From a virus (Duplodnaviria > Heunggongvirae > Uroviricota > Caudoviricetes), in the IMG/VR virus record IMGVR_UViG_2585427742_000014: a DNA stretch of 11,352 bases. The stretch is one strand, 5' to 3'. A model generated the notes under the pieces. The model made no database searches and was not told the DNA's origin. It worked only from the letters and a program-made list of their open reading frames with translations. How positions within the stretch are numbered: the stretch's first letter is position 1; each line of letters starts with the position of its first letter. Of this stretch, positions 1,165 through 10,117 are shown piece by piece. The position numbers and the translations under genes were made by a program.

Positions 1165-1599
1165 TTACTGTTCTGTATCGGCTGATTGCTCCATGCTGGC
1201 ACGGCGAACGCTTATGGCATGACGCCACCCAGCCAGAAAGCCAGCCATTTTATTTCGTGCCTTGCTCACATCTTCCGGTGAATAGCCGTAAATCTGCAAA
1301 CCTTCATCAAATCGATGTTCTGTTTCTTCACTGGAGTACTCGTCACGCTCAGATGAAAGCAGCCTGGCAAACATAATTTTTTCCAGCGCACTGGTTTCTA
1401 CGTGATATCTGATGGTCTCAAGACGGCTTTTACCTGAAGACCAAAGCAATGTATGCCCGATGTGATAACCGCCAGACTTTCCGCGATCCGCATTAAGATA
1501 CGGCATCCCCTGTTTGGTCCATGCGCGAATAGTGGTTCTGTTAACCTTGAAATGTTCAGCTATTTCCTGCTGACTTACAAAACAAGCTTTATCAATCAT
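1165..1599 (-). CDS. Nu1-like small-terminase DNA-binding protein with a divergent C-terminus; candidate packaging-redirection factor (Rpp-like) or island TerS
   Basis: N-terminus VSQQEIAEHFKVNRTTIRAWTKQGMPYL resembles the winged-HTH of lambda gpNu1 (KKQLADIFGASIRTIQNWQEQGMPVL, from memory). At 144 aa it is shorter than Nu1 and the C-terminal half is unrelated. A cos site lies ~90 bp upstream. Confidence 0.7.
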   Translation of the reverse strand: MIDKACFVSQQEIAEHFKVNRTTIRAWTKQGMPYLNADRGKSGGYHIGHTLLWSSGKSRLETIRYHVETSALEKIMFARLLSSERDEYSSEETEHRFDEGLQIYGYSPEDVSKARNKMAGFLAGWRHAISVRRASMEQSADTEQ

Positions 1600-1733
1600 A
1601 ATGTTACCTTAACTGCATGGTTAAATATTAATCAAGTGGTGGTGGTGTCACCTTCACGGAAAAACGTCATAAATAGCGAAAACCCGCGAGGTCGCCGCCC
1701 CGTAACGGGTCCATAATTCCAGGAAGGACCCGT
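1600..1733 (-). other. cos-2: lambda-type cos site in minus orientation (cosN at 1689-1700 as reverse complement), in the lambda-like position immediately upstream of the Nu1-like gene
   Basis: Minus strand reads ACGGGTCCTTCCTGGAATTATGGACCCGTTACG|GGGCGGCGACCT|CGCGGGTTTTCGCTATTTATGACGTTTTTCCGTGAAGG. The 22 nt after cosN are identical to lambda as recalled, and CGTTTTTCCGTG resembles lambda R3. Confidence 0.75.
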
Positions 1734-1755
1734 AAAAAAGCCGGATTTCTCCGGC
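1734..1755 (-). terminator. Rho-independent terminator for the capsid operon (GCCGGA-TTTC-TCCGGC stem-loop followed by T6 on the minus strand)
   Basis: Hairpin 1740-1755 and A6 at 1734-1739 (T6 on the minus strand), 7 nt past the stop of the 1762..2175 ORF. Confidence 0.6.
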
Positions 1756-1761
1756 CTTGTC

Positions 1762-2175
1762 TCAGATGGTTTTCAGTATGCGATCGATGTCGCCGTCATC
1801 GCCCTGGTTTCTGCCATCGTATGCCATGCCAGCTGATACGGCTTGCGGGCTGTGCATGTCCATAAAGTTTTCAAAGGCTGCGGTAAGTTCCGGCGCAACC
1901 TTCGGACGTTCCTGCTCTATGGTCATGCTAAGGATGCTTTTAGCCGTACCAACATCGATACAAGGCACGTTTGCCATTGCACGCAACAGCGGCTGATAGT
2001 CTTTATGCTCATGAAGCGCCATAATCGCATCAGCGCGCGGCTTGTCCTGCTCTTCCAGTTTGTTTAGTTGATATACGGCCTCATAGGTTGATAAACCTCT
2101 GTCAGCCATTGCCCGCGCTTCGGCTTTAAATTTACTCGCCAGCGGTAGCGTCATGATGCTTTCATTCGTTGCCAT
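1762..2175 (-). CDS. Hypothetical protein (137 aa), last gene of the capsid operon
   Basis: ORF track; sits 12 nt downstream of the gpD-like gene and just before the terminator. No family recognised. Confidence 0.55.
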   Translation of the reverse strand: MATNESIMTLPLASKFKAEARAMADRGLSTYEAVYQLNKLEEQDKPRADAIMALHEHKDYQPLLRAMANVPCIDVGTAKSILSMTIEQERPKVAPELTAAFENFMDMHSPQAVSAGMAYDGRNQGDDGDIDRILKTI

Positions 2176-2187
2176 CGTTCCCCCTGC

Positions 2188-2523
2188 TTATCGGGCCAGC
2201 GGCTGAACGGATACGCCGGAACCCGCAAAGGCGGCGCATTTTTTCGCATCGGTGTCGACGCTCTCAGGCCAGTTAACGGCGGCAATATTGAATATCCCCG
2301 TCTTGTAACACTGTGCTGATTTCTGCTTTGACGTGTCCACAGGGTACGAGGTCAGATAAACAGCCTTGCCAGATTCCTTACCATCCCACGGCTTAAACTC
2401 GCCATTGTCCGCCAGCATCAGCGGGGTAAATTCCTGAATAACGCCAGCATCAGCGGCAAAATGTACCAGCGTCGTGGCGACCTGCTGACTGCCTGCAAAT
2501 AACTCAATGTATGGAGTGTCCAT
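2188..2523 (-). CDS. Head decoration protein, lambda gpD-like
   Basis: 111 aa; TPLMLADNGEFKPWDGKESGKAV...CYKTGIFNIAAVNWPESVDTDAKKCAAFAGSGVSVQ parallels lambda gpD (TPLMLDTSSRKLVAWDG...[36 protein letters not shown], from memory). Lies directly downstream of the capsid gene. Confidence 0.8.
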   Translation of the reverse strand: MDTPYIELFAGSQQVATTLVHFAADAGVIQEFTPLMLADNGEFKPWDGKESGKAVYLTSYPVDTSKQKSAQCYKTGIFNIAAVNWPESVDTDAKKCAAFAGSGVSVQPLAR

Positions 2524-2534
2524 AGAATCCCCCG

Positions 2535-3590
2535 TTAACCAATTTTGACGGTAACAAATTTGCGAATATCTGCCGGAACCGGCTGCGGTGCGCTGTGCGT
2601 CTGCACGTACTCAATCGCCGGATCGCCGTCCTCAATCCAGTTTTTCGGGTAAAACATGTTTTGCGTTGCGCCCGTTCTTACTGCGTCCTGATCCATAATC
2701 GCACCATAGGCCACCAGCCCTTTATTGTTGGTGTTGCCCAGAACCAGCAAATCAGGCTCAAGGAAATATTTTTCTGTGCCGTCGCTGTCAGTGTATTTGC
2801 CGGAATAGACGATAAGGGCAATATCGCCCAGATAGCCTTTAAAGCTCACCACTTCGCCCAGGTTTTTACAGGCCAGCTCTGCGGCGGACTCTGAACCACG
2901 GGAAAGATCGTACAGCTCACGGAATTTTTTAAAGCTGCGTAACGTTCGCCATACCTCAGCGCCCATAATCATGACGTTTGCGGGGCAACCAGCCTGATCA
3001 GCATAAAGCTCGATGTCATAGATTGGGTCGTGCATGTCTTTATCCTGCTCGGACCATTTTTTACCCTTGGCCTGCTCTATGATGCAGTTTTCCGGTATTT
3101 TCCAGTCGATTTCATAGCGTTCTATGCCTTCGCCCTCAATGATGTTTTTTCCGGTCGTTACCGCATTCACCGCCAGCCATTCCACGCGTGCCTTAATGGC
3201 GTTTATCTGGCGGCGCATGTTGCCAGTAATCAGGCGCATACGGCGATAGGTAGGGTCGTTAAGCTGTGCCGGATCTTCTCCAGCCATGCGCATGATGGTT
3301 TTCGTTGGATCGATTTCGTGCTTTGGCTTCATGTAGCCAGGTTTGATTGTGCTGGTTTCGTACCCTTTATCGCGCTGAACCTGGCTACCCACCATAGGCG
3401 AACAAAACGCCGACATGGTGACTTCTTCAATGTCCAGGGTATCCAGCATGATGTTTTGCGTGCTGAATGTCGCCACGTTCGGGAAAAACAGCGTGGTAAA
3501 CAGAGGGCTGAATTTAAAATCCGCAATATCCCCGCGATTCAGGTACATGAAAAGCTGGTTAGTGTTAAGTGCCGTTGCTTTGCCTGCCAT
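2535..3590 (-). CDS. Major capsid protein, lambda gpE family
   Basis: 351 aa; shared motifs with lambda gpE as recalled: DFKFSPLF / KFKFDPLF, PGYMKPKHEI / PGYVKPKHEV, DPTYRRMRLI / DPAYRRRRII, YPKNWIEDGDPAIEY / YPKNWVTTGDPAREF. GGGGG-type RBS 6 nt upstream. Confidence 0.9.
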   Translation of the reverse strand: MAGKATALNTNQLFMYLNRGDIADFKFSPLFTTLFFPNVATFSTQNIMLDTLDIEEVTMSAFCSPMVGSQVQRDKGYETSTIKPGYMKPKHEIDPTKTIMRMAGEDPAQLNDPTYRRMRLITGNMRRQINAIKARVEWLAVNAVTTGKNIIEGEGIERYEIDWKIPENCIIEQAKGKKWSEQDKDMHDPIYDIELYADQAGCPANVMIMGAEVWRTLRSFKKFRELYDLSRGSESAAELACKNLGEVVSFKGYLGDIALIVYSGKYTDSDGTEKYFLEPDLLVLGNTNNKGLVAYGAIMDQDAVRTGATQNMFYPKNWIEDGDPAIEYVQTHSAPQPVPADIRKFVTVKIG

Positions 3591-3796
3591 TATTCACCCC
3601 CATAATTTTTATGCATCCCAAGCGCCGCAAGTAAATAAGAGCGTACAAGTGAACCTATCGACGGCTCCGGCGTCATCAGCGGATCCAGTCCAGCCGCCAC
3701 GCCAGCCTCATAGTTTTTTTTGTGGCGCTGCTTGAGCACCTCCACGATTTCGGGGCTTATGTACACCGAAACACCGCCTTTTTTCTCTTCAGCCAT
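3590..3796 (-). CDS. Hypothetical small protein (68 aa), first gene of the capsid operon, translationally coupled to the capsid gene
   Basis: Stop overlaps the capsid ATG (TAATG); AGAGGAA-type RBS upstream. No family recognised. Confidence 0.5.
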   Translation of the reverse strand: MAEEKKGGVSVYISPEIVEVLKQRHKKNYEAGVAAGLDPLMTPEPSIGSLVRSYLLAALGMHKNYGGE

Positions 3797-4909: not shown

Positions 4910-4957
4910 ATTTATTTTTACCCCCTCGTTTAAAAAGTTTTGAGTTGTGCCTCCCCT

Positions 4958-5185
4958 TGTCTACCTTATCTACCTTAGTGGCCCTCATGCCAGTAATGGC
5001 GCGGCTTTCAGCGGGGTAGAGTGCTTTTATCCACTATCTACCCCGTGTCTACCTCCCTGTCTGACTCAGGTAAAATCAGGTAGAGAGGGTAGATAGTGGG
5101 TAGACAGTAAAAAAAAGCTATCTACCTAACTTAATGCACTGAATTAAATGTATTTTTCTTTACTCAGGTAGACAGGGTAGACAGC
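4958..5185. repeat. Iteron array with AT-rich segment; putative island replication origin just downstream of the primase gene
   Basis: At least 9 copies of GGTAGA(C/T/G)AG or its complement in both orientations: TCTACCTTA x2 tandem at 4960-4977, CTATCTACC 5035-5043, GTGTCTACC 5045-5053, GGTAGAG 5079-5085, GGGTAGATAG 5088-5097, GGGTAGACAG 5098-5107, GCTATCTACC 5117-5126, GGTAGACAG x2 tandem at 5167-5184. AT-rich stretch at 5107-5160. Confidence 0.7.
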
Positions 5186-5197
5186 AATTACAAAAAA

Positions 5198-6952
5198 TTA
5201 TAAAAACGCGTCGCACTCGTCTGTTGTTATTGCGTTAGTCTGCGTTACTCCCTTAACTTTCCGCGTAATATATTCATGTCCGTAAACTTTCGCGGCTGGC
5301 TTCATAGCCTTGCCAAAGTCATTTACGTTTAGCGGTTTGCTCCTGCCTGCGTACGCCATAAACGCCAGATAGACGCGGTAAAGGCTGTTTCTGGTCGTGT
5401 ACTTCACTGAATCGCCACCGCCGCCCATCATCAGGCCGCGTGCTTCCTCCAGAAAATTCAGGAACTGGCAAAACTCAATAACCGGATCCGTCTGTTGCTT
5501 TATTGCCAGTGCTTCATCACCGTCACGCTGTTCCAGTAGTAAAGCCCGTGCTTTCTCAGAGTCGGTAAAGTTCGCCAGCAATCGGCGGATAATGACAGGG
5601 ATTTCAGCCGCAATCTTTTCCGGTAGCTCCCTGTCTTTTTCGGCCTCACTGACGATATTGTCGAAACGGAAAATCACGCGACGACGTGCCACACCTCCGG
5701 CCCGTTCGGTGAATATCATCGGGTTGTTGTTGGTCGCCAGCACCACCGCCCTGATTACCGCCGTAAAACGCTTTTCATATTTCGGGTTAATTTCCACGGG
5801 GTCACCGCCCGTGATTTTCTTGATGCCCGTTCCTTCGCCTGTATATTTCGGCTGGTCAGCCAGGACGATAAGACGACTCCCGACAACCTGCGCACGTCCA
5901 CCAGCATCATCAAGCGATGTCATTTCAGCGCTTACCGTGTTCTGTTTCCCTGCCAGAAGGCTGGCTATGTGCGTGAATGTACTTTTACCGCTCCCGCCGT
6001 CTCCGGTGGCCTCAATAAACATCTGCCAGTCGTACCGGTTCGCCATAATCATGTACAGCGCGGCACATATACGCATCATCTTGCGCGGGTCTTTTCCGGC
6101 TGCGTGCTTAAGCCATTTATGAAAGTTTGGCGCGTTATCGCGGATGTTCTCCCCTGGTGCTGGTGGCGTGTACTCAATGCCGTTGTTCGTGGTGATCCAG
6201 TTCTCCGGCGTGTGCGGGGAAAATTCCCCCGTTTTCAGGTCAAGCGCACCATTGGCGAACGGCAGCAAATCGCCGGACGGCTCGCCCATTGGTTCGGCAA
6301 TAACTTTTAACGCTTCCACGGCGTTATTGATTACGCGCTTGCTGAAAGTGGCCCTGTGCTCTGAATAGATCGCCACCATTTCGCGGCTAAGTTCCATTGT
6401 GCTGACCGGACACCATACCCCGCCGCGCCATACGTGAACGATTTCACTTTCAGGATGTACGCAAACGCCATCAAAGCGATCGGCAAGCAGCTGCGCGCGC
6501 TCACTGTCCGCCATCTGCGAAAGTTGCGCCTTTTGCTTTACCGGAAGCTCAATGACCAGACCATCAGAAAGATTCTGGCGCTCACGGGCCAGATATTCGC
6601 GCCAGTTCTCCACCTTCTGACCGTGCATACCATCAGGGTAAAAATTTGCGTCCTGAATATCTGCCGCCGCCAGCTTCTGACCAATCTTTTTGGTCTCCAC
6701 TAAATCCAGTTCTCCGGCCTGGTACAGCCTTACGCGCTTTTTCCCATCCGGAACAATTTTCAGCGCATCAAGTTCGGCAAGCTGATTTGGCCCAAGCCAC
6801 ACAGGCGGCACATTATCGCCGGATGCGGGGCCGTCCTGCTCCTGCCACTGTTTTGCATGTGACCACGCATCACTACCCGCGAAAATAATTACCTCTGTGT
6901 CTTTGTGTTTTATTCCGCGTGGTTGTTTTTTTACGTTCGGTGCCAGTTTCAT
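5198..6952 (-). CDS. Primase-helicase (D5_N-like region plus SF3-type P-loop NTPase; phage/plasmid primase, P4 family C-terminal type)
   Basis: 584 aa; Walker A GDGGSGKST, preceded by a D5_N-like segment (FANGALDLKTGEFSPHTPENWITTN). Followed by the iteron origin. Confidence 0.85.
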   Translation of the reverse strand: MKLAPNVKKQPRGIKHKDTEVIIFAGSDAWSHAKQWQEQDGPASGDNVPPVWLGPNQLAELDALKIVPDGKKRVRLYQAGELDLVETKKIGQKLAAADIQDANFYPDGMHGQKVENWREYLARERQNLSDGLVIELPVKQKAQLSQMADSERAQLLADRFDGVCVHPESEIVHVWRGGVWCPVSTMELSREMVAIYSEHRATFSKRVINNAVEALKVIAEPMGEPSGDLLPFANGALDLKTGEFSPHTPENWITTNNGIEYTPPAPGENIRDNAPNFHKWLKHAAGKDPRKMMRICAALYMIMANRYDWQMFIEATGDGGSGKSTFTHIASLLAGKQNTVSAEMTSLDDAGGRAQVVGSRLIVLADQPKYTGEGTGIKKITGGDPVEINPKYEKRFTAVIRAVVLATNNNPMIFTERAGGVARRRVIFRFDNIVSEAEKDRELPEKIAAEIPVIIRRLLANFTDSEKARALLLEQRDGDEALAIKQQTDPVIEFCQFLNFLEEARGLMMGGGGDSVKYTTRNSLYRVYLAFMAYAGRSKPLNVNDFGKAMKPAAKVYGHEYITRKVKGVTQTNAITTDECDAFL

Positions 6953-7248
6953 TTCTTACCCCTGAATACGTTAAGCATCTTTTTTATTTCCTGAATATTG
7001 GCGCGTGCTTTCTCCCTGCTGGTGGGCACGTTACGCGGTACGGCCTGCACCAGAGAAAAATCACGATCGAACTGATAAACAGGCATCACGCAATCATATT
7101 CGTAGCCTTCACGACGGTAGGTTACGCGCCGTTCCTCCACGCCCTTAATCATTACCGTGCCGCCGTACTGGTCGCGGTAAATATCACCGCGCATGAATTT
7201 AGTGCGAGTTTTGCCACTGGCAGTTAAGCCAGAATATTTAAGTTTCAT
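6949..7248 (-). CDS. Hypothetical protein (99 aa), translationally coupled to the primase gene
   Basis: ATGA overlap with the primase start; GGAG upstream. No family recognised. Confidence 0.55.
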   Translation of the reverse strand: MKLKYSGLTASGKTRTKFMRGDIYRDQYGGTVMIKGVEERRVTYRREGYEYDCVMPVYQFDRDFSLVQAVPRNVPTSREKARANIQEIKKMLNVFRGKK

Positions 7249-7253
7249 TATTT

Positions 7254-7484
7254 TTATTCTCCGGTGTGGGGCGCTTTATTATTCTCGTGAATTGCCATAG
7301 CCTTATTGAGTTCATCAATAACAGGTGTCAATAATGTCTGAACAGCGGCAAACATTAATGATGAATGATCTTCGCCACCTTCCGGCACTTCAATTAATTT
7401 AATTAACAACGCATTCATTTCGCGTGCTTTAATTAATGCGTTTTCAGAGTGGATTAATACTTCAAAAGGGATTTTATGCATCAC
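7254..7484 (-). CDS. Hypothetical small protein (76 aa) in the AT-rich cassette
   Basis: ORF track; visibly AT-rich coding region; overlaps the upstream gene by 11 nt. Confidence 0.5.
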   Translation of the reverse strand: MMHKIPFEVLIHSENALIKAREMNALLIKLIEVPEGGEDHSSLMFAAVQTLLTPVIDELNKAMAIHENNKAPHTGE

Positions 7485-7704
7485 AAATTTTCTCCCTTAT
7501 TCTTTTAATGTCCTCATTAAGGATGTCTGTAACTTTTATCAGCGAGTTTTTGGCAATTATTTTTATTGTTTTAAGTTTTCTTTTGTCGTGCTCCGACTGT
7601 GATTTTCTCTCCATAATCTCCACCATGTGGGTAACATCAACGAGCGCACGTATCAGTATTTGCATTGCTTCTTCTGCTGCGTCCGGTGTGGTTTTATTGC
7701 ACAT
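7474..7704 (-). CDS. Hypothetical small protein (76 aa from the ATG at 7704; the ORF extends to 7758) in the AT-rich cassette
   Basis: Internal ATG at 7704 is preceded by GGAGGGG with a 5-nt spacer; the longer ORF start at 7758 would overlap the upstream gene by 65 nt. Confidence 0.5.
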   Translation of the reverse strand: MCNKTTPDAAEEAMQILIRALVDVTHMVEIMERKSQSEHDKRKLKTIKIIAKNSLIKVTDILNEDIKRIREKICDA

Positions 7705-7924
7705 GTACCCCTCCGCATTTTTTTTCGTTAGAAATAAGCGTTCTTCTTTCCTGTTCATCGCTCAGGAATACGCAGACCTCACCGCTAAGGCGTTTAAGTA
7801 AGCCGATGATTGCCCCTGATTCGCTGTCGGTCATCATGCCAGGGTAATCCTCTGCCAGTGCGCAAATAACTTCGATTTGGTGGGCGCGTTCTGCTGCCTG
7901 TTGTAGTGTGATTTCCTGACTCAT
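7694..7924 (-). CDS. Hypothetical small protein (76 aa)
   Basis: ORF track; ATGA overlap with the stop of the upstream 7921..8382 gene. Confidence 0.5.
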   Translation of the reverse strand: MSQEITLQQAAERAHQIEVICALAEDYPGMMTDSESGAIIGLLKRLSGEVCVFLSDEQERRTLISNEKKCGGVHVQ

Positions 7925-8382
7925 AAGCCTACCCCCTGACGAATACGGGCGACAAAAATCAGATGTGCGTGCGGCAGCTGTGCACGTGCTTCGCGCTCAG
8001 TGGCAGCGGTAACGGTGAATATTGCAATGCTGTCTGTCAGGCACTGCATAAAGCGCCAGACAAAATAAGGGCGTGCGGATACAGCCATGTGAAAGGCTCC
8101 CAGATGAATTTTAAGGAGTCTCGCTACTACGCTGTCAAACATGGTGGCGAGACGTAACAGGGTTGACAGACTGGTCATCTGGAAACCAGCGAGCACAAAG
8201 GCTCCCCCGTTACGCCCCGCCATAATGCGGGTATGGGTAGGTTTACGGACACAAAAAAACCGCTTATCGGATGTGGGCGGCTGTCCGCCAGATGTATTCA
8301 GGCTGTCAAACCCGGTCGCCATGTGGGCGACGGGGGAAGCATACAGCCCCGTGATAATTTTTTGCAAGCGGTTTTTACGCAT
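7921..8382 (-). CDS. Small protein, paralog 1, with a C-terminal motif shared with 8375..8578 (Icd-like/Ash-like small-protein type; start uncertain, alternative ATG at 8088)
   Basis: C-terminus YFVWRF...TAATEREARAQLPHAHLIFVARIRQG parallels the downstream paralog. The ATG at 8382 overlaps the upstream stop (ATGCGTAA) with AGGGG 7 nt upstream; the alternative ATG at 8088 has GGAG 8 nt upstream. Confidence 0.45.
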   Translation of the reverse strand: MRKNRLQKIITGLYASPVAHMATGFDSLNTSGGQPPTSDKRFFCVRKPTHTRIMAGRNGGAFVLAGFQMTSLSTLLRLATMFDSVVARLLKIHLGAFHMAVSARPYFVWRFMQCLTDSIAIFTVTAATEREARAQLPHAHLIFVARIRQGVGL

Positions 8383-8578
8383 GATATGACCCCTGGCGAA
8401 TACGGGCAGCGAATACCATCACGCAGCCAGCCGGAGATTGCTGACGCGCTTCCTGTTCGCTGGTGGCCTCGATGGTAATCACGCGCGGTTGTGCCGTGCT
8501 CAGGGCGATAAAACGCCAGATGTATTTATTCAGGTTGTACGAGTCCCGCCCTTGCGGGTGTCTGGTATAATTTCTCAT
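8375..8578 (-). CDS. Small protein, paralog 2 (67 aa), Icd-like/Ash-like type
   Basis: MRNYTRHPQGRDSYNLNKYIWRF...EATSEQEARQQSPAGCVMVFAARIRQG; GAGG 5 nt upstream of the ATG at 8578. This is the 3' end of the otherwise implausible 382-aa ORF. Family assignment is from memory and unverified. Confidence 0.5.
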   Translation of the reverse strand: MRNYTRHPQGRDSYNLNKYIWRFIALSTAQPRVITIEATSEQEARQQSPAGCVMVFAARIRQGSYHA

Positions 8579-8650
8579 AGCTACCTCGATACTTTCGCTA
8601 TCGTTGGTGGTTAGAAGCCCTGCATGTGTTCCAGCACTGCGGGGCTTTGC

Positions 8651-8755
8651 TGTACATACACCACAATCATTGGTGTGTGTACAGATTAAATTTAAGTGCG
8701 CTACAGTGTCAAGTGTTTTATTTACACACCTTTTGGTGTAATGTATGCACACCTC
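8651..8755. promoter_or_regulatory. Divergent promoter/operator region with inverted repeats built on CACACC / GGTGTG
   Basis: GTACATACACCA (8652-8663) and TGGTGTGTGTAC (8671-8682) form a 12-bp inverted repeat with one mismatch and a 7-bp spacer; further ACACACC / GGTGT / CACACC copies at 8724-8753. Lies between divergent genes starting at 8578 (minus) and 8775 (plus). Confidence 0.45.
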
Positions 8756-8774
8756 AAAATAACCGGACATTCTG

Positions 8775-9080
8775 ATGGCAACAGGAAATATCAACAGCAG
8801 ATCGCAAATGAAAAATATCCGCTTCCCCCATGATGTAATCGAGGAAATGGAAAATTCGAAAACGGAAGGGGAAACAATAGCCGCTTTCGTGATTACAGCC
8901 GTTCGCGGTGAGATCGCCCGCCGCCAGGCAGAAGGAAGCGGAGAAAATCCCCTGGTTTCTTCGCTCGATGCACTGGCGCAGGTGGAAAAAATCGGAGTCA
9001 AAGCAGCCGAGGAGATCGGGCAACTCATCACCGTCGCGCGTGAAGAACTCCAGCGTCGCAAGGCCAAAGAGCAGGAGTGA
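8775..9080 (+). CDS. Ribbon-helix-helix-like DNA-binding protein (101 aa; start uncertain)
   Basis: KNIRFPHDVIEEMENSKTEGETIAAFVITAVRGEIARR fits a beta-strand/helix/helix RHH pattern; non-repetitive charged composition. Weak SD at 8775. Confidence 0.55.
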   Translation: MATGNINSRSQMKNIRFPHDVIEEMENSKTEGETIAAFVITAVRGEIARRQAEGSGENPLVSSLDALAQVEKIGVKAAEEIGQLITVAREELQRRKAKEQE

Positions 9081-9137
9081 CCATCACCAGCGCCGTGGTG
9101 TAAGGTATTACGGCGCATTGCTATGCAGGACAACACA

Positions 9138-9311
9138 ATGACCGATAAAGAATTGACCAAAACATTATCACCGGCACGGAAAAGACGGCGCAGAAAGATA
9201 GAGCATGAATCAGAAAGATTCGCGCCATGTGCTTTTGCCCTTGAGCAATTCCTTAAAGAGTACAGGGAAAAGCGCTCATTGCAGGTATGGCAACGAACTG
9301 AACCAGACTGA
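9138..9311 (+). CDS. Small basic protein (57 aa from the ATG at 9138; the ORF starts at 9123)
   Basis: AGGA 7 nt upstream of the ATG at 9138; contains ARKRRRRK; followed by a strong terminator. Confidence 0.4.
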   Translation: MTDKELTKTLSPARKRRRRKIEHESERFAPCAFALEQFLKEYREKRSLQVWQRTEPD

Positions 9312-9406
9312 TTGCATTGCCCACCAGCCTGATAACGGCTATCATCCCCGTGCTTATGTTTGGGATCACACACACAAACGGCGCAGCGGGTTATCTGTTC
9401 AGAAAG

Positions 9407-9434
9407 GCGGCTCCATTTCGGGGCCGCTTTTTTT
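9407..9434 (+). terminator. Rho-independent terminator of the plus-strand RHH operon
   Basis: 8-bp stem GCGGCTCC / GGGGCCGC (one G-U pair), loop ATTTC, followed by T7 at 9428-9434. Confidence 0.7.
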
Positions 9435-9580
9435 ATACCTGAAAAACCCCAATTTTGTTGTTTTTCAGTTTCACCAGGGCGAACGAATCCCCGCCCACGT
9501 TCTGGCGTATATTCAATCTTCATGGTTATAGCTCTGTGTTCAGATGATTGATGTGTGGCGGCTGCGTGCCGCCAGCGTGA

Positions 9581-9850
9581 TTAATGAACTGCCTTGCAGC
9601 TATCCTTCCAGGCCAGAACCTCGGATAAAGACCAGCCAACGGAACGACCGCCAAGTTTACGACGTGATGGGAATTGTCCGGCCTTTTCCAGGCGGTAGCG
9701 ACACGTACGGCTAAGGCCGGTTAGTTTTTCGCATTCTTTTTCACGTATAAACCGATCAGTGCTTAACACTATTGCCCCCCTTTCGTTTCTTAAAGAGTCA
9801 TCAGGTGTCTTATTGTGTCGTATTGTTCCCGCTAGAGTGATGAATGGCAA
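9581..9850 (-). CDS. alpA: AlpA-family phage transcriptional regulator (MerR-like HTH)
   Basis: 89 aa; EKLTGLSRTCRYRLEKAGQFPSRRKLGGRSVGWSLSEVLAW matches the AlpA / CP4-57 regulatory protein signature as recalled; adjacent to the integrase. Confidence 0.85.
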   Translation of the reverse strand: MPFITLAGTIRHNKTPDDSLRNERGAIVLSTDRFIREKECEKLTGLSRTCRYRLEKAGQFPSRRKLGGRSVGWSLSEVLAWKDSCKAVH

Positions 9851-9920
9851 ATACTGAGGATATATGATTTACAGAAAATGAAACAGTAAGAATAAAATCT
9901 TTTAAATTCATGTTAATACA

Positions 9921-9951
9921 AAGGCATAAAATATTGTTCCATGCCTTTTTT
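9921..9951. terminator. Terminator-like hairpin (AAGGCAT / ATGCCTT stem, 13-nt loop, T-tract on the plus side) between int and alpA
   Basis: Seen directly. The T-tract is on the plus strand although the flanking genes are on the minus strand, so it may be a weak or bidirectional terminator for int, or a regulatory hairpin. Confidence 0.35.
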
Positions 9952-10040
9952 CTCGCTCTTTAAAGAGTGATTCGCTAGTGTACAAAAAACCAGTAACACA
10001 TTAAAAATCAGCTACTTATAAATCCGTACGCTTTTTCGCC

Positions 10041-10117
10041 TCTTGTTCGTAGTTGTTCCACATTGTTGCTCATTGTTGCACGTTGTATCTGTTCGCATAT
10101 CCAGTATGCGCATACTG
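10041..10117. promoter_or_regulatory. 10-bp phased TTGTT(G/C) repeats (10044-10097) followed by a perfect 16-bp palindrome CAGTATGCGCATACTG (10102-10117) at the int 3' flank
   Basis: CATTGTTGC repeated exactly at 10062 and 10072, with related copies at a 10-bp period; the palindrome was read directly. Confidence 0.45.

Follow-up and report, generated by a model that had tools for sequence, protein, structure and literature searches.

Three small coupled genes in the early operon of an Escherichia coli P4-related phage-inducible chromosomal island

The left operon of satellite P4 carries, in order, Vis, eta (with the CI RNA), epsilon (95 aa), orf151, cnr (106 aa), and alpha. Its eta/epsilon and epsilon/orf151 junctions overlap by 8 to 11 nt, the former in the form GTGCGTAATAA. 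Epsilon inactivates the repressor of P2, P4 copy number is under the control of cnr, and 61% of P4-like satellites encode an uncharacterised 75-aa protein between epsilon and alpha (PMC8628076). The immI region of phages P1 and P7 (c4-icd-ant) holds the C4 RNA with a1/b1 sites upstream, a2/b2 sites downstream, and b2 on the ribosome-binding site of a short icd. In P1, icd must be translated for the genes behind it to be expressed. Gram-negative phage-inducible chromosomal islands (PICIs) and HE-PICIs have a "Bro zone", likewise a dynamic zone between int/alpA and the replication modules (PMC10111431). Almost nothing is known about the gene content between alpA and the replication genes of E. 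coli PICIs. Here, we analyze this interval in the Caudoviricetes record IMGVR_UViG_2585427742_000014 of IMG/VR; "the window" is the whole stretch of 11,352 nt. We focus on three small open reading frames (ORFs) at positions 7254 to 7924, named ORF3, ORF2, and ORF1 in the direction of transcription.

We find that the early operon of this P4-related PICI includes ORF1, ORF2, and ORF3 as accessory genes, none of them characterised so far. The element spans about 11 kb; a 99.9% identical stretch of an E. coli chromosome (L001) has it as an island within tqsA. Its order is tyrosine integrase, AlpA, two Icd-like ORFs, ORF3-ORF2-ORF1, DUF4222, D5_N/DUF5906 primase, SSB, and capsid genes; it is an E. 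coli PICI related to P4, with an E-type capsid gene of its own. All genes of the operon in the window, the three ORFs included, lie on the minus strand, in the order AlpA/Vis, Icd-like, Eta/Icd-like with an embedded C4/CI RNA, ORF3, ORF2, ORF1, RgdR (the DUF4222 protein), and alpha-like primase. An initial annotation, made from the letters of the window, had argued from position in satellites, and the argument holds, for the order is that of the P4 left operon. The AlpA/Vis-type regulator (9581–9850; 9581–9769 in the Prokaryotic Genome Annotation Pipeline, PGAP), the activator heading the operon, matches PF05930 (E 1.5e-16) and is 45% identical to P4 ORF88/Vis; the primase/helicase (5198–6952; D5_N, DUF5906, and Pox_D5) shares 40% identity with P4 alpha over 440 aa; and an Eta/Icd-like ORF contains a C4/CI RNA. 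PICI induction needs alpA (10.1101/2022.09.08.507074). We place high confidence in the anatomy, coding status, operon context, and antisense switch described below, which are read directly from sequence.

ORF3 (7694–7924; 76 aa, acidic, isoelectric point (pI) 4.8) belongs to a family that we term G3 (phrog_1478), ORF2 (7474–7704; 76 aa, pI 8.6, basic in this allele) to G2 (phrog_5146), and ORF1 (7254–7481; 75 aa, or 76 aa from a GTG at 7484; acidic, pI 5.4) to G1 (phrog_2196). PGAP calls the same three genes as hypothetical proteins in the 99.9% identical chromosome (WP_000076671 for ORF3, WP_000336144 for ORF2). The exact sequence of each occurs on about 1000 contigs or more and has never been given a name. 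The mechanical ORF of the middle gene is longer, 94 aa, and extends to 7758, so that the ORF2 start given here is an internal ATG. We take the 76-aa start as the real one because a GGAGG Shine–Dalgarno (SD) sequence lies 5 nt upstream of it, the phrog_5146 alignment begins at residue 19 of the 94-aa form, the homologues are all 76 aa, and in islands without ORF3 the gene begins at the same codon, directly behind icd. For allele pairs differing by 10% to 20% in nucleotides, the ratio of nonsynonymous to synonymous substitution is 0.15 to 0.40 for ORF1 and 0.33 to 0.40 for ORF2; these values, 0.15 to 0.40 overall, indicate proteins under purifying selection. ORF3 is near-invariant, and its coding status rests on protein family membership.

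The genes are joined into an unbroken chain. The overlaps are 4 nt for icd/ORF3 (ATGA), 11 nt for ORF3/ORF2, and 8 nt for ORF2/ORF1. A 5-nt gap separates ORF1 from the DUF4222 gene, whose SD (GGAG) lies within the last codons of ORF1, and DUF4222 in turn overlaps the primase by 4 nt (ATGA). Since coupling continues past both edges, the three genes belong to a long operon and do not stand as a cassette of their own. The initial annotation had described three translationally coupled ORFs of about 76 aa upstream of the primase: the coordinates, the 11- and 8-nt overlaps, and the PGAP calls confirm the description, with coupling that extends further, and the position is correct, except that the DUF4222/RgdR gene (6949–7248) lies between. 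Inside the ORF3-ORF1 stretch, we detected no promoter-like sites above chance level and no convincing terminator.

The junctions from 8088 to 6949 (minus strand) are built alike: a purine-rich SD in the upstream gene, an ATG, and the upstream stop 4 to 11 nt into the next gene. They take the forms ATGA, ATGCATAA, ATGTGCAATAA, and ATGCGTGA, and the pattern is common to P4 (L086 7888–8175). It fixes the first residues (M-H/C-N-K) and the last residues (…HA, …HTGE) of the proteins encoded here and, at the level of sequence comparison, mimics protein homology. The three ORFs are spaced by exactly 220 nt and have near-equal lengths. A tandem triplication was considered and rejected: pairwise Smith–Waterman z values run from -0.8 to 0.95, and hhalign probabilities do not exceed 3.5% even with deep profiles. 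Size, the 220-nt spacing, and a predicted hairpin fold are all that the three have in common.

Upstream of ORF3 lies an antisense immunity RNA of C4/CI type (8140–8227, minus strand; RF01695, 72.6 bits against a gathering score of 45, E 5.7e-13). The P4 CI RNA, within the P4 eta ORF, scores 74.9 bits with the same model. An upstream C4 target, c4-a1b1, lies at 8288–8344 (minus strand; RF03163 match 8295–8344, 46.8 bits against a gathering score of 46.7). The sites are a1 TTGACAG (8303–8309) and b1 CATCTGG (8288–8294) on the upstream side, and a2 TTGACAG (8132–8138) and b2 TCATCTGG (8100–8107) on the downstream side, all on the minus strand. b2 abuts or overlaps the GGGAG SD (8097–8101) of a short Icd/Kil-like ORF of 55 aa (7921–8088, minus strand; ATG at 8088, pI 10.6), the stop of which overlaps the ORF3 start. 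This short ORF is the C-terminal part of a 153-aa Eta-like ORF (7921–8382) that PGAP annotates as "host cell division inhibitor Icd-like protein". The 153-aa ORF contains the C4 RNA and the a1/b1 targets, and the Icd model NF033153 matches it only at residues 107 to 149. The 55-aa ORF from ATG 8088, which has its own SD, is likely the Kil/Icd product, and the 153-aa ORF thus appears as the counterpart of P4 eta, to which PGAP gives the same "Icd-like" name; eta, kil, and CI of P4 are described in PMC10111431. Annotation pipelines miss the C4 RNA hidden in the "Icd-like" ORF.

The C4 loops a' and b' are each complementary to one upstream and one downstream site, at fixed distances from the RNA (a1 -82, b1 -67, a2 +2, b2 +33). 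Loops and all four targets change together in L003, L015, L024, L074, and P4 (L086); L015 is a mix-and-match case, with the b loop of one type and the a segment of another. Such co-variation speaks strongly, on comparative grounds, for a functioning antisense switch of the type known from P1 immI and P4 immunity. We count at least 5 C4 specificities plus the mix-and-match combination of L015, and co-varying specificities would therefore define hetero-immunity classes among E. coli PICIs, as P1 versus P7. In one further island, L026, two C4-type RNAs that differ in subtype lie in tandem (2785–2873 and 3263–3351), each before an Icd-like ORF. By analogy with P1 and P4, the C4 RNA would pair with b2 at the icd ribosome-binding site and block icd translation. 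The position of b2 at the icd SD makes it the putative translational repression point for the entire downstream operon. Coupling and polarity would then keep that operon, ORF1-3 included, silent in the integrated island, and the three proteins would be made only early after entry or upon helper-triggered, AlpA-dependent read-through.

Comparison across related islands separates the three genes. We collected 79 loci with both anchors (the Icd-like and DUF4222 genes) from IMG/VR and E. coli genomes; these reduce to 64 distinct sequences of the slot, as we call the interval between the anchors. The slot draws on a few families of small proteins in a fixed order: G3 (ORF3), G2 (ORF2), G5 and G4 (both optional), G1 (ORF1), then DUF4222. 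The ORF1 family is present in 63 of the 64, always directly upstream of the DUF4222/RgdR gene, a presence statistic biased upward by retrieval of the loci with ORF1 and ORF2 as queries. G1 is also present in all loci retrieved through ORF2 or DNA similarity; a scan of genome contigs with DUF4222 gave 2 loci only. ORF2 and ORF3 are optional, and the combinations are largely nested (ORF1; ORF2 and ORF1; all three): 14 slots hold G1 alone, 11 hold G2-G1, 7 hold G3-G2-G1, 7 hold G3-G2-G4-G1, and 5 hold G3-G2-G5-G4-G1. The gene behind icd varies accordingly by island and may be ORF3, ORF2, ORF1, G7, or G10. In the sampled islands, slot content shows no association with the replicase, integrase, capsid, or C4 modules. 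Natural in-frame fusions of the ORF2 family to G4 (MRDDRF...), 144 to 170 aa long, occur in four islands (L060 5947–6435, L063 436–870, L066 5654–6157, L085 5947–6459), which suggests that slot proteins act together.

Within the slot, ORF1 and ORF2 vary as alleles. Aligned to the window, the other haplotype keeps 98% to 99.9% identity as far down as about 7675, and identity resumes, at about 85%, from about 7279 onward; between these points lies unrelated DNA of roughly 600 to 1000 bp. The replaceable segment of the window, about 7280–7673 (394 bp, 35.8% GC), coincides with the AT-rich stretch; one breakpoint falls 10 codons into ORF2, the other 8 codons ahead of the ORF1 stop. Between types, the alleles of ORF1 and of ORF2 share only 30% to 40% identity, and the types of the two genes co-vary. 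Allele type is independent of the replicase (alpha-like primase, RepA helicase, or DUF927), the integrase, the capsid type, and the presence of C4. Judged from these aligned haplotypes, ORF1 and ORF2 form a swappable AT-rich cassette. Of 5426 complete E. coli genomes, 125 carry the window haplotype and 1131 some part of the 6900–8400 region.

Base composition fits this division only in part. GC content is 41.4% over the whole stretch 7254–7924 and 49.2% over the window (z = -2.1); 0.2% of non-overlapping windows fall as low. The deficit comes entirely from ORF1 and ORF2 (37.7% each); ORF3, at 48% to 49%, is average. The alpA-int intergenic region (about 9720–10100) is equally AT-rich. ORF1-family genes are low in GC throughout (36% to 41.5% among 51 distinct alleles), and ORF2 is low only in the allele type of this island (38%, versus 49% in other types). 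The low GC of ORF1 is therefore no sign of recent import here: it is a constant trait of a near-universal family. The initial annotation had presented the three genes as one AT-rich cassette, separately acquired. On a windowed GC calculation, AT-richness stands for ORF1 and ORF2 and fails for ORF3. Acquisition keeps some ground, in that the AT-rich stretch is the very segment replaced elsewhere by unrelated DNA, but the low GC is constant in the ORF1 family and ORF3 lies outside the segment. The unity of the three genes has to be given up, since they occur as ORF1, as ORF2 with ORF1, or as all three.

An AT-rich stretch of this kind may also be read as a replication origin. A repeat search found no repeat families within it, and this candidate was rejected; iteron-like repeats lie instead at 4955–5206. 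There, in the intergenic region directly downstream of the primase, cluster the short direct repeats GGTAGACAG(T), CCTTATCTA, and TCTACCTCCCTG, and this cluster is a likely replication origin.

In P4, epsilon/orf151/cnr occupy the same interval as ORF3-ORF1 in a homologous operon, downstream of Vis/AlpA and an Eta/Icd ORF with CI/C4. The two operons share junctions with 8- to 11-nt overlaps of the ATGNNNTAA type, similarly small proteins, and an alpha-type primase at the end. The gene right behind the Eta/CI-RNA ORF, ORF3 here and ORF2 or ORF1 elsewhere, is joined by 4- to 11-nt overlaps, as is P4 epsilon. They differ in protein length (75 to 76 aa for ORF1-3 versus 95, 151, and 106 aa for epsilon, orf151, and cnr), in the gene that abuts the primase (DUF4222/RgdR here, cnr in P4), and in the helpers, which here are lambdoid phages and not P2. 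No similarity between the proteins emerged. In Pfam at E<=1, ORF1-3 give no PF25738 match, while P4 epsilon scores 170 bits; hhalign of the ORF1, ORF2, and ORF3 family profiles against a 15-sequence epsilon alignment gives probabilities of at most 3.1%, over the first 12 residues only; there is no DUF5375 match, and blastp and hidden Markov model (HMM) comparisons with P4 Cnr are not significant. We considered ORF2 as a remote homologue of epsilon, with which it shares MxNKxTP (residues 1–7) and LNEDI (62–66) in an ungapped zero-offset alignment (z = 4.1). We do not claim homology: the hhalign probability is 3%, and the N-terminal N-K likeness arises from the shared junction, because the overlapped upstream stop (AATAA) lies in codons 3 and 4. 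The likeness of ORF1-3 to P4 epsilon/orf151/cnr, as far as the comparison goes, is one of positional analogy only.

Other systems offer partial parallels. The C4 region of this island has the layout of P1/P7 immI, including b2 at the short icd and loop variation that gives different specificities; the difference lies behind icd, where this island has three ORFs of about 75 aa (predicted hairpins), RgdR, and the primase, with no Ant-like domain by Pfam. The Bro zone, like this interval, holds genes of the Icd/Eta type, and some islands have immunity RNAs of the C4/isrK type there (PMC10111431); the parts of that paper considered here treat Bro-network domain proteins and RNAs and assign small hairpin ORFs no function or family. 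The uncharacterised 75-aa protein of P4-like satellites is of the same size class as ORF1-3 and lies in the same operon interval. In two P4-like satellites, a gene of 73 to 86 aa sits directly upstream of cnr (L088 2902–3162 and L089 3828–4049, both minus strand); it is probably that "75 aa, 61%" family of PMC8628076. As relatives of ORF1-3 or other slot families, these 73- and 86-aa candidates were rejected, being unrelated by HMM and hhalign.

A studied island with a related operon is Sakai Sp7 (OI-51/CP-933C), a capsid-forming PICI (cf-PICI) of the EcCIEDL933 type in O157:H7. There, ECs1579 belongs to the ORF3 family (52.5% identity) and ECs1580 represents a third ORF1-family type (E 1.7e-8); the two, likewise uncharacterised, keep the order seen here, with rgdR and the primase directly downstream. 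Sp7 differs in lacking ORF2 and a C4 RNA (none found with the same covariance model), in an extra 61-aa gene, ECs1578, and in a full HK97-type capsid/packaging module in place of the E-type capsid gene. The DUF4222 protein of the window (6949–7248, minus strand; 99 aa, pI 10; PF13973 E 5e-24), between ORF1 and the primase, is 92.9% identical to RgdR/ECs1581 of Sp7 and keeps the RGD motif, and is thus its orthologue. RgdR activates LEE (enterocyte effacement locus) type III secretion (PMC3378721; PMC10877973). Whatever the replicase behind it (alpha-like primase, RepA helicase, or DUF927), the DUF4222 gene is in every case coupled to it, an arrangement that suggests a native role for RgdR/DUF4222 in satellite replication or early control.

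Family searches gave membership without names. ORF3 matches phrog_1478 (E 2.9e-28), ORF2 phrog_5146 (E 9.1e-8), and ORF1 phrog_2196 (E 3.7e-10), all PHROGs of unknown function. No Pfam (scanned to E<=1, no accepted match), NCBIfam, or PADLOC family was found for ORF1-3, in agreement with the initial annotation, which could name no family for them; PADLOC-DB gave 0 families for ORF1-3, RgdR, and the Icd-like ORF. Pfam and PHROGs gave no Ant, Bro-N, KilA-N, or other antirepressor domain in the ORFs downstream of icd, and Pfam, NCBIfam, and PADLOC gave no toxin–antitoxin match for ORF1-3. A HEPN/HepT toxin assignment for ORF2 was rejected: it reaches E 0.027 and 14.6 bits (cut-off 23.5) only on the over-long 94-aa form, other ORF2 types do not keep the R-x5-H stretch, and the structure model is a plain hairpin. 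Sequence searches of the ORFs against the Protein Data Bank (PDB) returned nothing meaningful.

The families differ in reach. An exhaustive HMMER search of 1.84 billion proteins gave 34 representatives of the ORF3 family, all 60 to 115 aa, and no informative fusion (one 815-aa match is a repetitive artefact). ORF3 is near-invariant among the PICI loci sampled, with the 52.5% identical homologue in Sp7, and in Fels-1 and Klebsiella prophages, distant homologues (38% to 41% identity) sit a short way downstream of the repressor. The ORF1 family comprises 696 clusters at 90% identity, and among the matches listed 120 of 120 are from Escherichia/Shigella. Its conserved half (TLLxPVIxEL...H) is kept between types that have no DNA-level similarity. 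A word-based search found the ORF2 family in Escherichia only, at 76% identity or more; alleles of 31% to 47% identity occur among the loci. In ORF2, the N-terminal 24 aa are conserved and the C-terminal 50 aa fall into at least 3 divergent types. By tblastn, neither ORF1 nor ORF2 was found in 50,697 phage records, and ORF1, the only one searched there, was not found in 72,556 plasmids.

AlphaFold2 predicts two-helix antiparallel hairpins for ORF1 (H6-31 and H38-68; mean confidence score pLDDT 79.2) and ORF2 (H9-34 and H38-75; pLDDT 85.9); ORF3 reads from its alignment as helix, YP loop, helix. Foldseek returned 0 matches at E<=1e-3 for ORF1 (PDB, BFVD) and ORF2 (PDB), and generic hairpins only. 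Of the checks proposed in the initial annotation, profile and structure searches thus yielded predicted hairpins for ORF1 and ORF2 and no significant fold or named-family match. Charges are uneven: the ORF1 family has a pI of 4.5 to 5.9, ORF3 is acidic, this ORF2 allele is basic, and RgdR has a pI of 10.

Because they are small predicted hairpins without catalytic motifs, ORF1-3 most likely act by binding macromolecules. ORF1 and ORF2 would most likely form a satellite-specific, hot-swappable specificity cassette that binds helper-phage proteins, with ORF1 as the core factor and ORF2 as an optional partner. Divergent alleles in conserved flanks, independence from the other modules, and restriction to satellites argue for an external, likely helper, target; in particular, an allele type independent of replicase, integrase, capsid, and C4 argues for a target outside the island. 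By analogy, the pair would be functional counterparts of the P4 epsilon/orf151 slot, in helper manipulation or interference. ORF3 is more likely a generic host-directed early accessory protein, since its family is present in lambdoid prophage early-left operons. As the best explanation of the whole (operon anatomy, C4 gating, helper-directed ORF1 and ORF2, and ORF3 as a generic accessory), we put this forward tentatively, as possible rather than probable. A more detailed form, in which ORF2 and ORF1 hairpins (with G4 where present) would assemble into a hetero-oligomeric helical bundle that binds a variable early protein of a lambdoid helper, is distinctly unlikely; we think the same of its further specification, namely that the target would be the helper repressor, antiterminator, or replication protein, with allelic types matched to helpers.

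Several points weigh against a helper-directed cassette. There is no sequence, profile, or fold likeness to epsilon, Cnr, Ant, or characterised antirepressor, interference, or anti-defence proteins; without protein similarity, a position as in P4 is the only link to helper manipulation. The predicted two-helix hairpin is too generic to imply function. No derepression of helpers is known for E. coli PICIs, and EcCIEDL933, a related cf-PICI, leaves helper titres unreduced (10.1101/2022.09.08.507074). C4 gating is not general to the family: of 64 islands, just 23 have a C4 RNA upstream of the slot by the covariance model (a lower bound, some loci being incomplete upstream). The presence statistics carry the upward bias of retrieval noted above. 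Finally, ORF1 is near-universal and coupled to RgdR, and an internal housekeeping role fits at least as well.

That internal role, with ORF1 as a partner of RgdR or the primase, is the main rival. ORF1, with or without ORF2, would be a satellite-internal regulator that modulates RgdR/DUF4222 or the primase, as Cnr does alpha, or an anti-activator. Its constant place next to RgdR on the upstream side in 63 of 64 islands, whichever replicase follows, is what such a partner would show; the RgdR SD in the last ORF1 codons suggests stoichiometric co-translation, the charges are complementary (acidic ORF1, basic RgdR), the TLLxPVIxEL...H half is maintained despite the lack of DNA similarity between types, and the copy-number regulator cnr of P4 sits in the equivalent stretch. 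Yet the ORF1 type does not co-vary with RgdR identity or replicase (in L060, ORF1 is 41% and RgdR 93% identical), a housekeeping interaction would not be expected to show alleles so deeply divergent next to conserved partners, resemblance to Cnr/DUF5375 is lacking, and in enterohaemorrhagic E. coli (EHEC) mapping assigned the type III secretion phenotype to rgdR alone, which by itself also complemented it (PMC3378721). On balance, we regard internal regulation as conceivable but doubtful. Takeover or anti-defence proteins directed at the host, neutralising restriction, immunity, proteases, RecBCD, or cell division, would also be small, mostly acidic, and early, and presence/absence with allelic variation is typical of anti-defence loci. 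Host-directed functions cluster in the early-left accessory region of lambdoid phages, where ORF3 has its prophage homologues, and the neighbours are host-directed too (Icd-like division inhibitors, and RgdR acting on the host LEE). For ORF1, however, a core rather than accessory distribution argues the other way; ORF1 and ORF2 are confined to these satellites, when host-directed functions tend to occur in phages and plasmids too; and Pfam and PHROGs, general libraries searched in place of a dedicated anti-defence library, gave no known anti-restriction or anti-defence match. We consider this reading unlikely.

ORF1-3 are neither a toxin–antitoxin pair nor a known defence system. The initial annotation had raised the idea of such a pair, which finds no family match and no obligate co-occurrence of partners. 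A broader antidote logic, in which one ORF would neutralise the upstream Icd/Kil-like inhibitor or two ORFs would pair as toxin and antitoxin, draws on the constant coupling of the first slot gene to the Icd/Kil-like ORF (ATGA or an 8- to 11-nt overlap) and on an acidic hairpin beside the small basic icd product, a charge pairing that resembles antitoxin and toxin. It is very improbable: neither toxin–antitoxin nor PADLOC families are matched, the gene behind icd differs between islands and hence forms no fixed pair, ORF1 stands alone in 14 of the 64 slots (with ORF2 in 11, with both others in 7), and no autonomous promoter or operator was detected in the cassette. To our knowledge, P1 and P4 have no antidote to Icd/Kil. 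The predicted hairpins also recall Rop, an RNA-binding protein whose architecture is a two-helix hairpin of about 65 to 75 aa, and the ORFs lie directly downstream of an antisense-RNA switch; they might aid kissing between C4 and its target, or, since coupled ORFs run without a break from icd to the primase, serve as a mere coupling relay. Against a Rop-like role stand the 41 of 64 islands, and Sakai Sp7 too, that have slot genes and no detectable C4 (some loci being incomplete upstream), the acidity of ORF1 and ORF3, and the absence of Rop from the listed fold matches. Purifying selection and motifs kept without DNA similarity show that the proteins matter, contrary to a relay, and ORF1-only islands show that a relay dispenses with ORF2 and ORF3. 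Both proposals strike us as barely credible.

The rest of the island adds context. The first Icd-like ORF (8375–8578, minus strand; 67 aa; NF033153 E 1.5e-19) lies upstream of the Eta-like ORF. A 382-aa minus-strand ORF at 8375–9523 is an artefact, of which PGAP keeps only the 3' end (8375–8578) plus a truncated Icd-like pseudogene. Between alpA and the Icd genes, the opposite strand carries a gene of the YlcI/YnfO family (phrog_6522, 101 aa; 8775–9080, plus strand). The late region (1165–3796, minus strand) encodes a lambda-E-type major capsid protein (2535–3590), a decoration protein (2188–2523), and a few ORFs of no known kind, with no portal, protease, or terminase. It is unlike that of the cf-PICIs L002 and Sakai Sp7, which have a full HK97-type module behind the same early operon, and resembles the "11capE" type, the 11-kb PICI with its own capsid E gene treated in PMC10111431.

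PICIs and cf-PICIs are common in E. coli and carry virulence regulators such as RgdR and PerC/Pch. The most useful outcomes of this analysis are the operon and regulatory context of the three genes, the definition of a swappable cassette, and the recognition of the ORF1 family as near-core. The annotation is corrected, in that the neighbouring "Icd-like" ORF conceals a C4/CI immunity RNA, and some PICIs appear to employ antisense immunity of the P4/P1 type with several interchangeable specificities. If the genes are ordinary accessory proteins, the result is a tidy annotation only; if the bundle reading is true, E. coli PICIs and cf-PICIs would have in the bundle a new functional analogue of P4 epsilon, unrelated to it in sequence. 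The ORF1 family, a near-core PICI gene, is also present in the experimentally tractable EcCIEDL933/Sp7 island, and a function for ORF1 would fill a gap in the PICI life cycle, be it in helper manipulation, replication control, or establishment.

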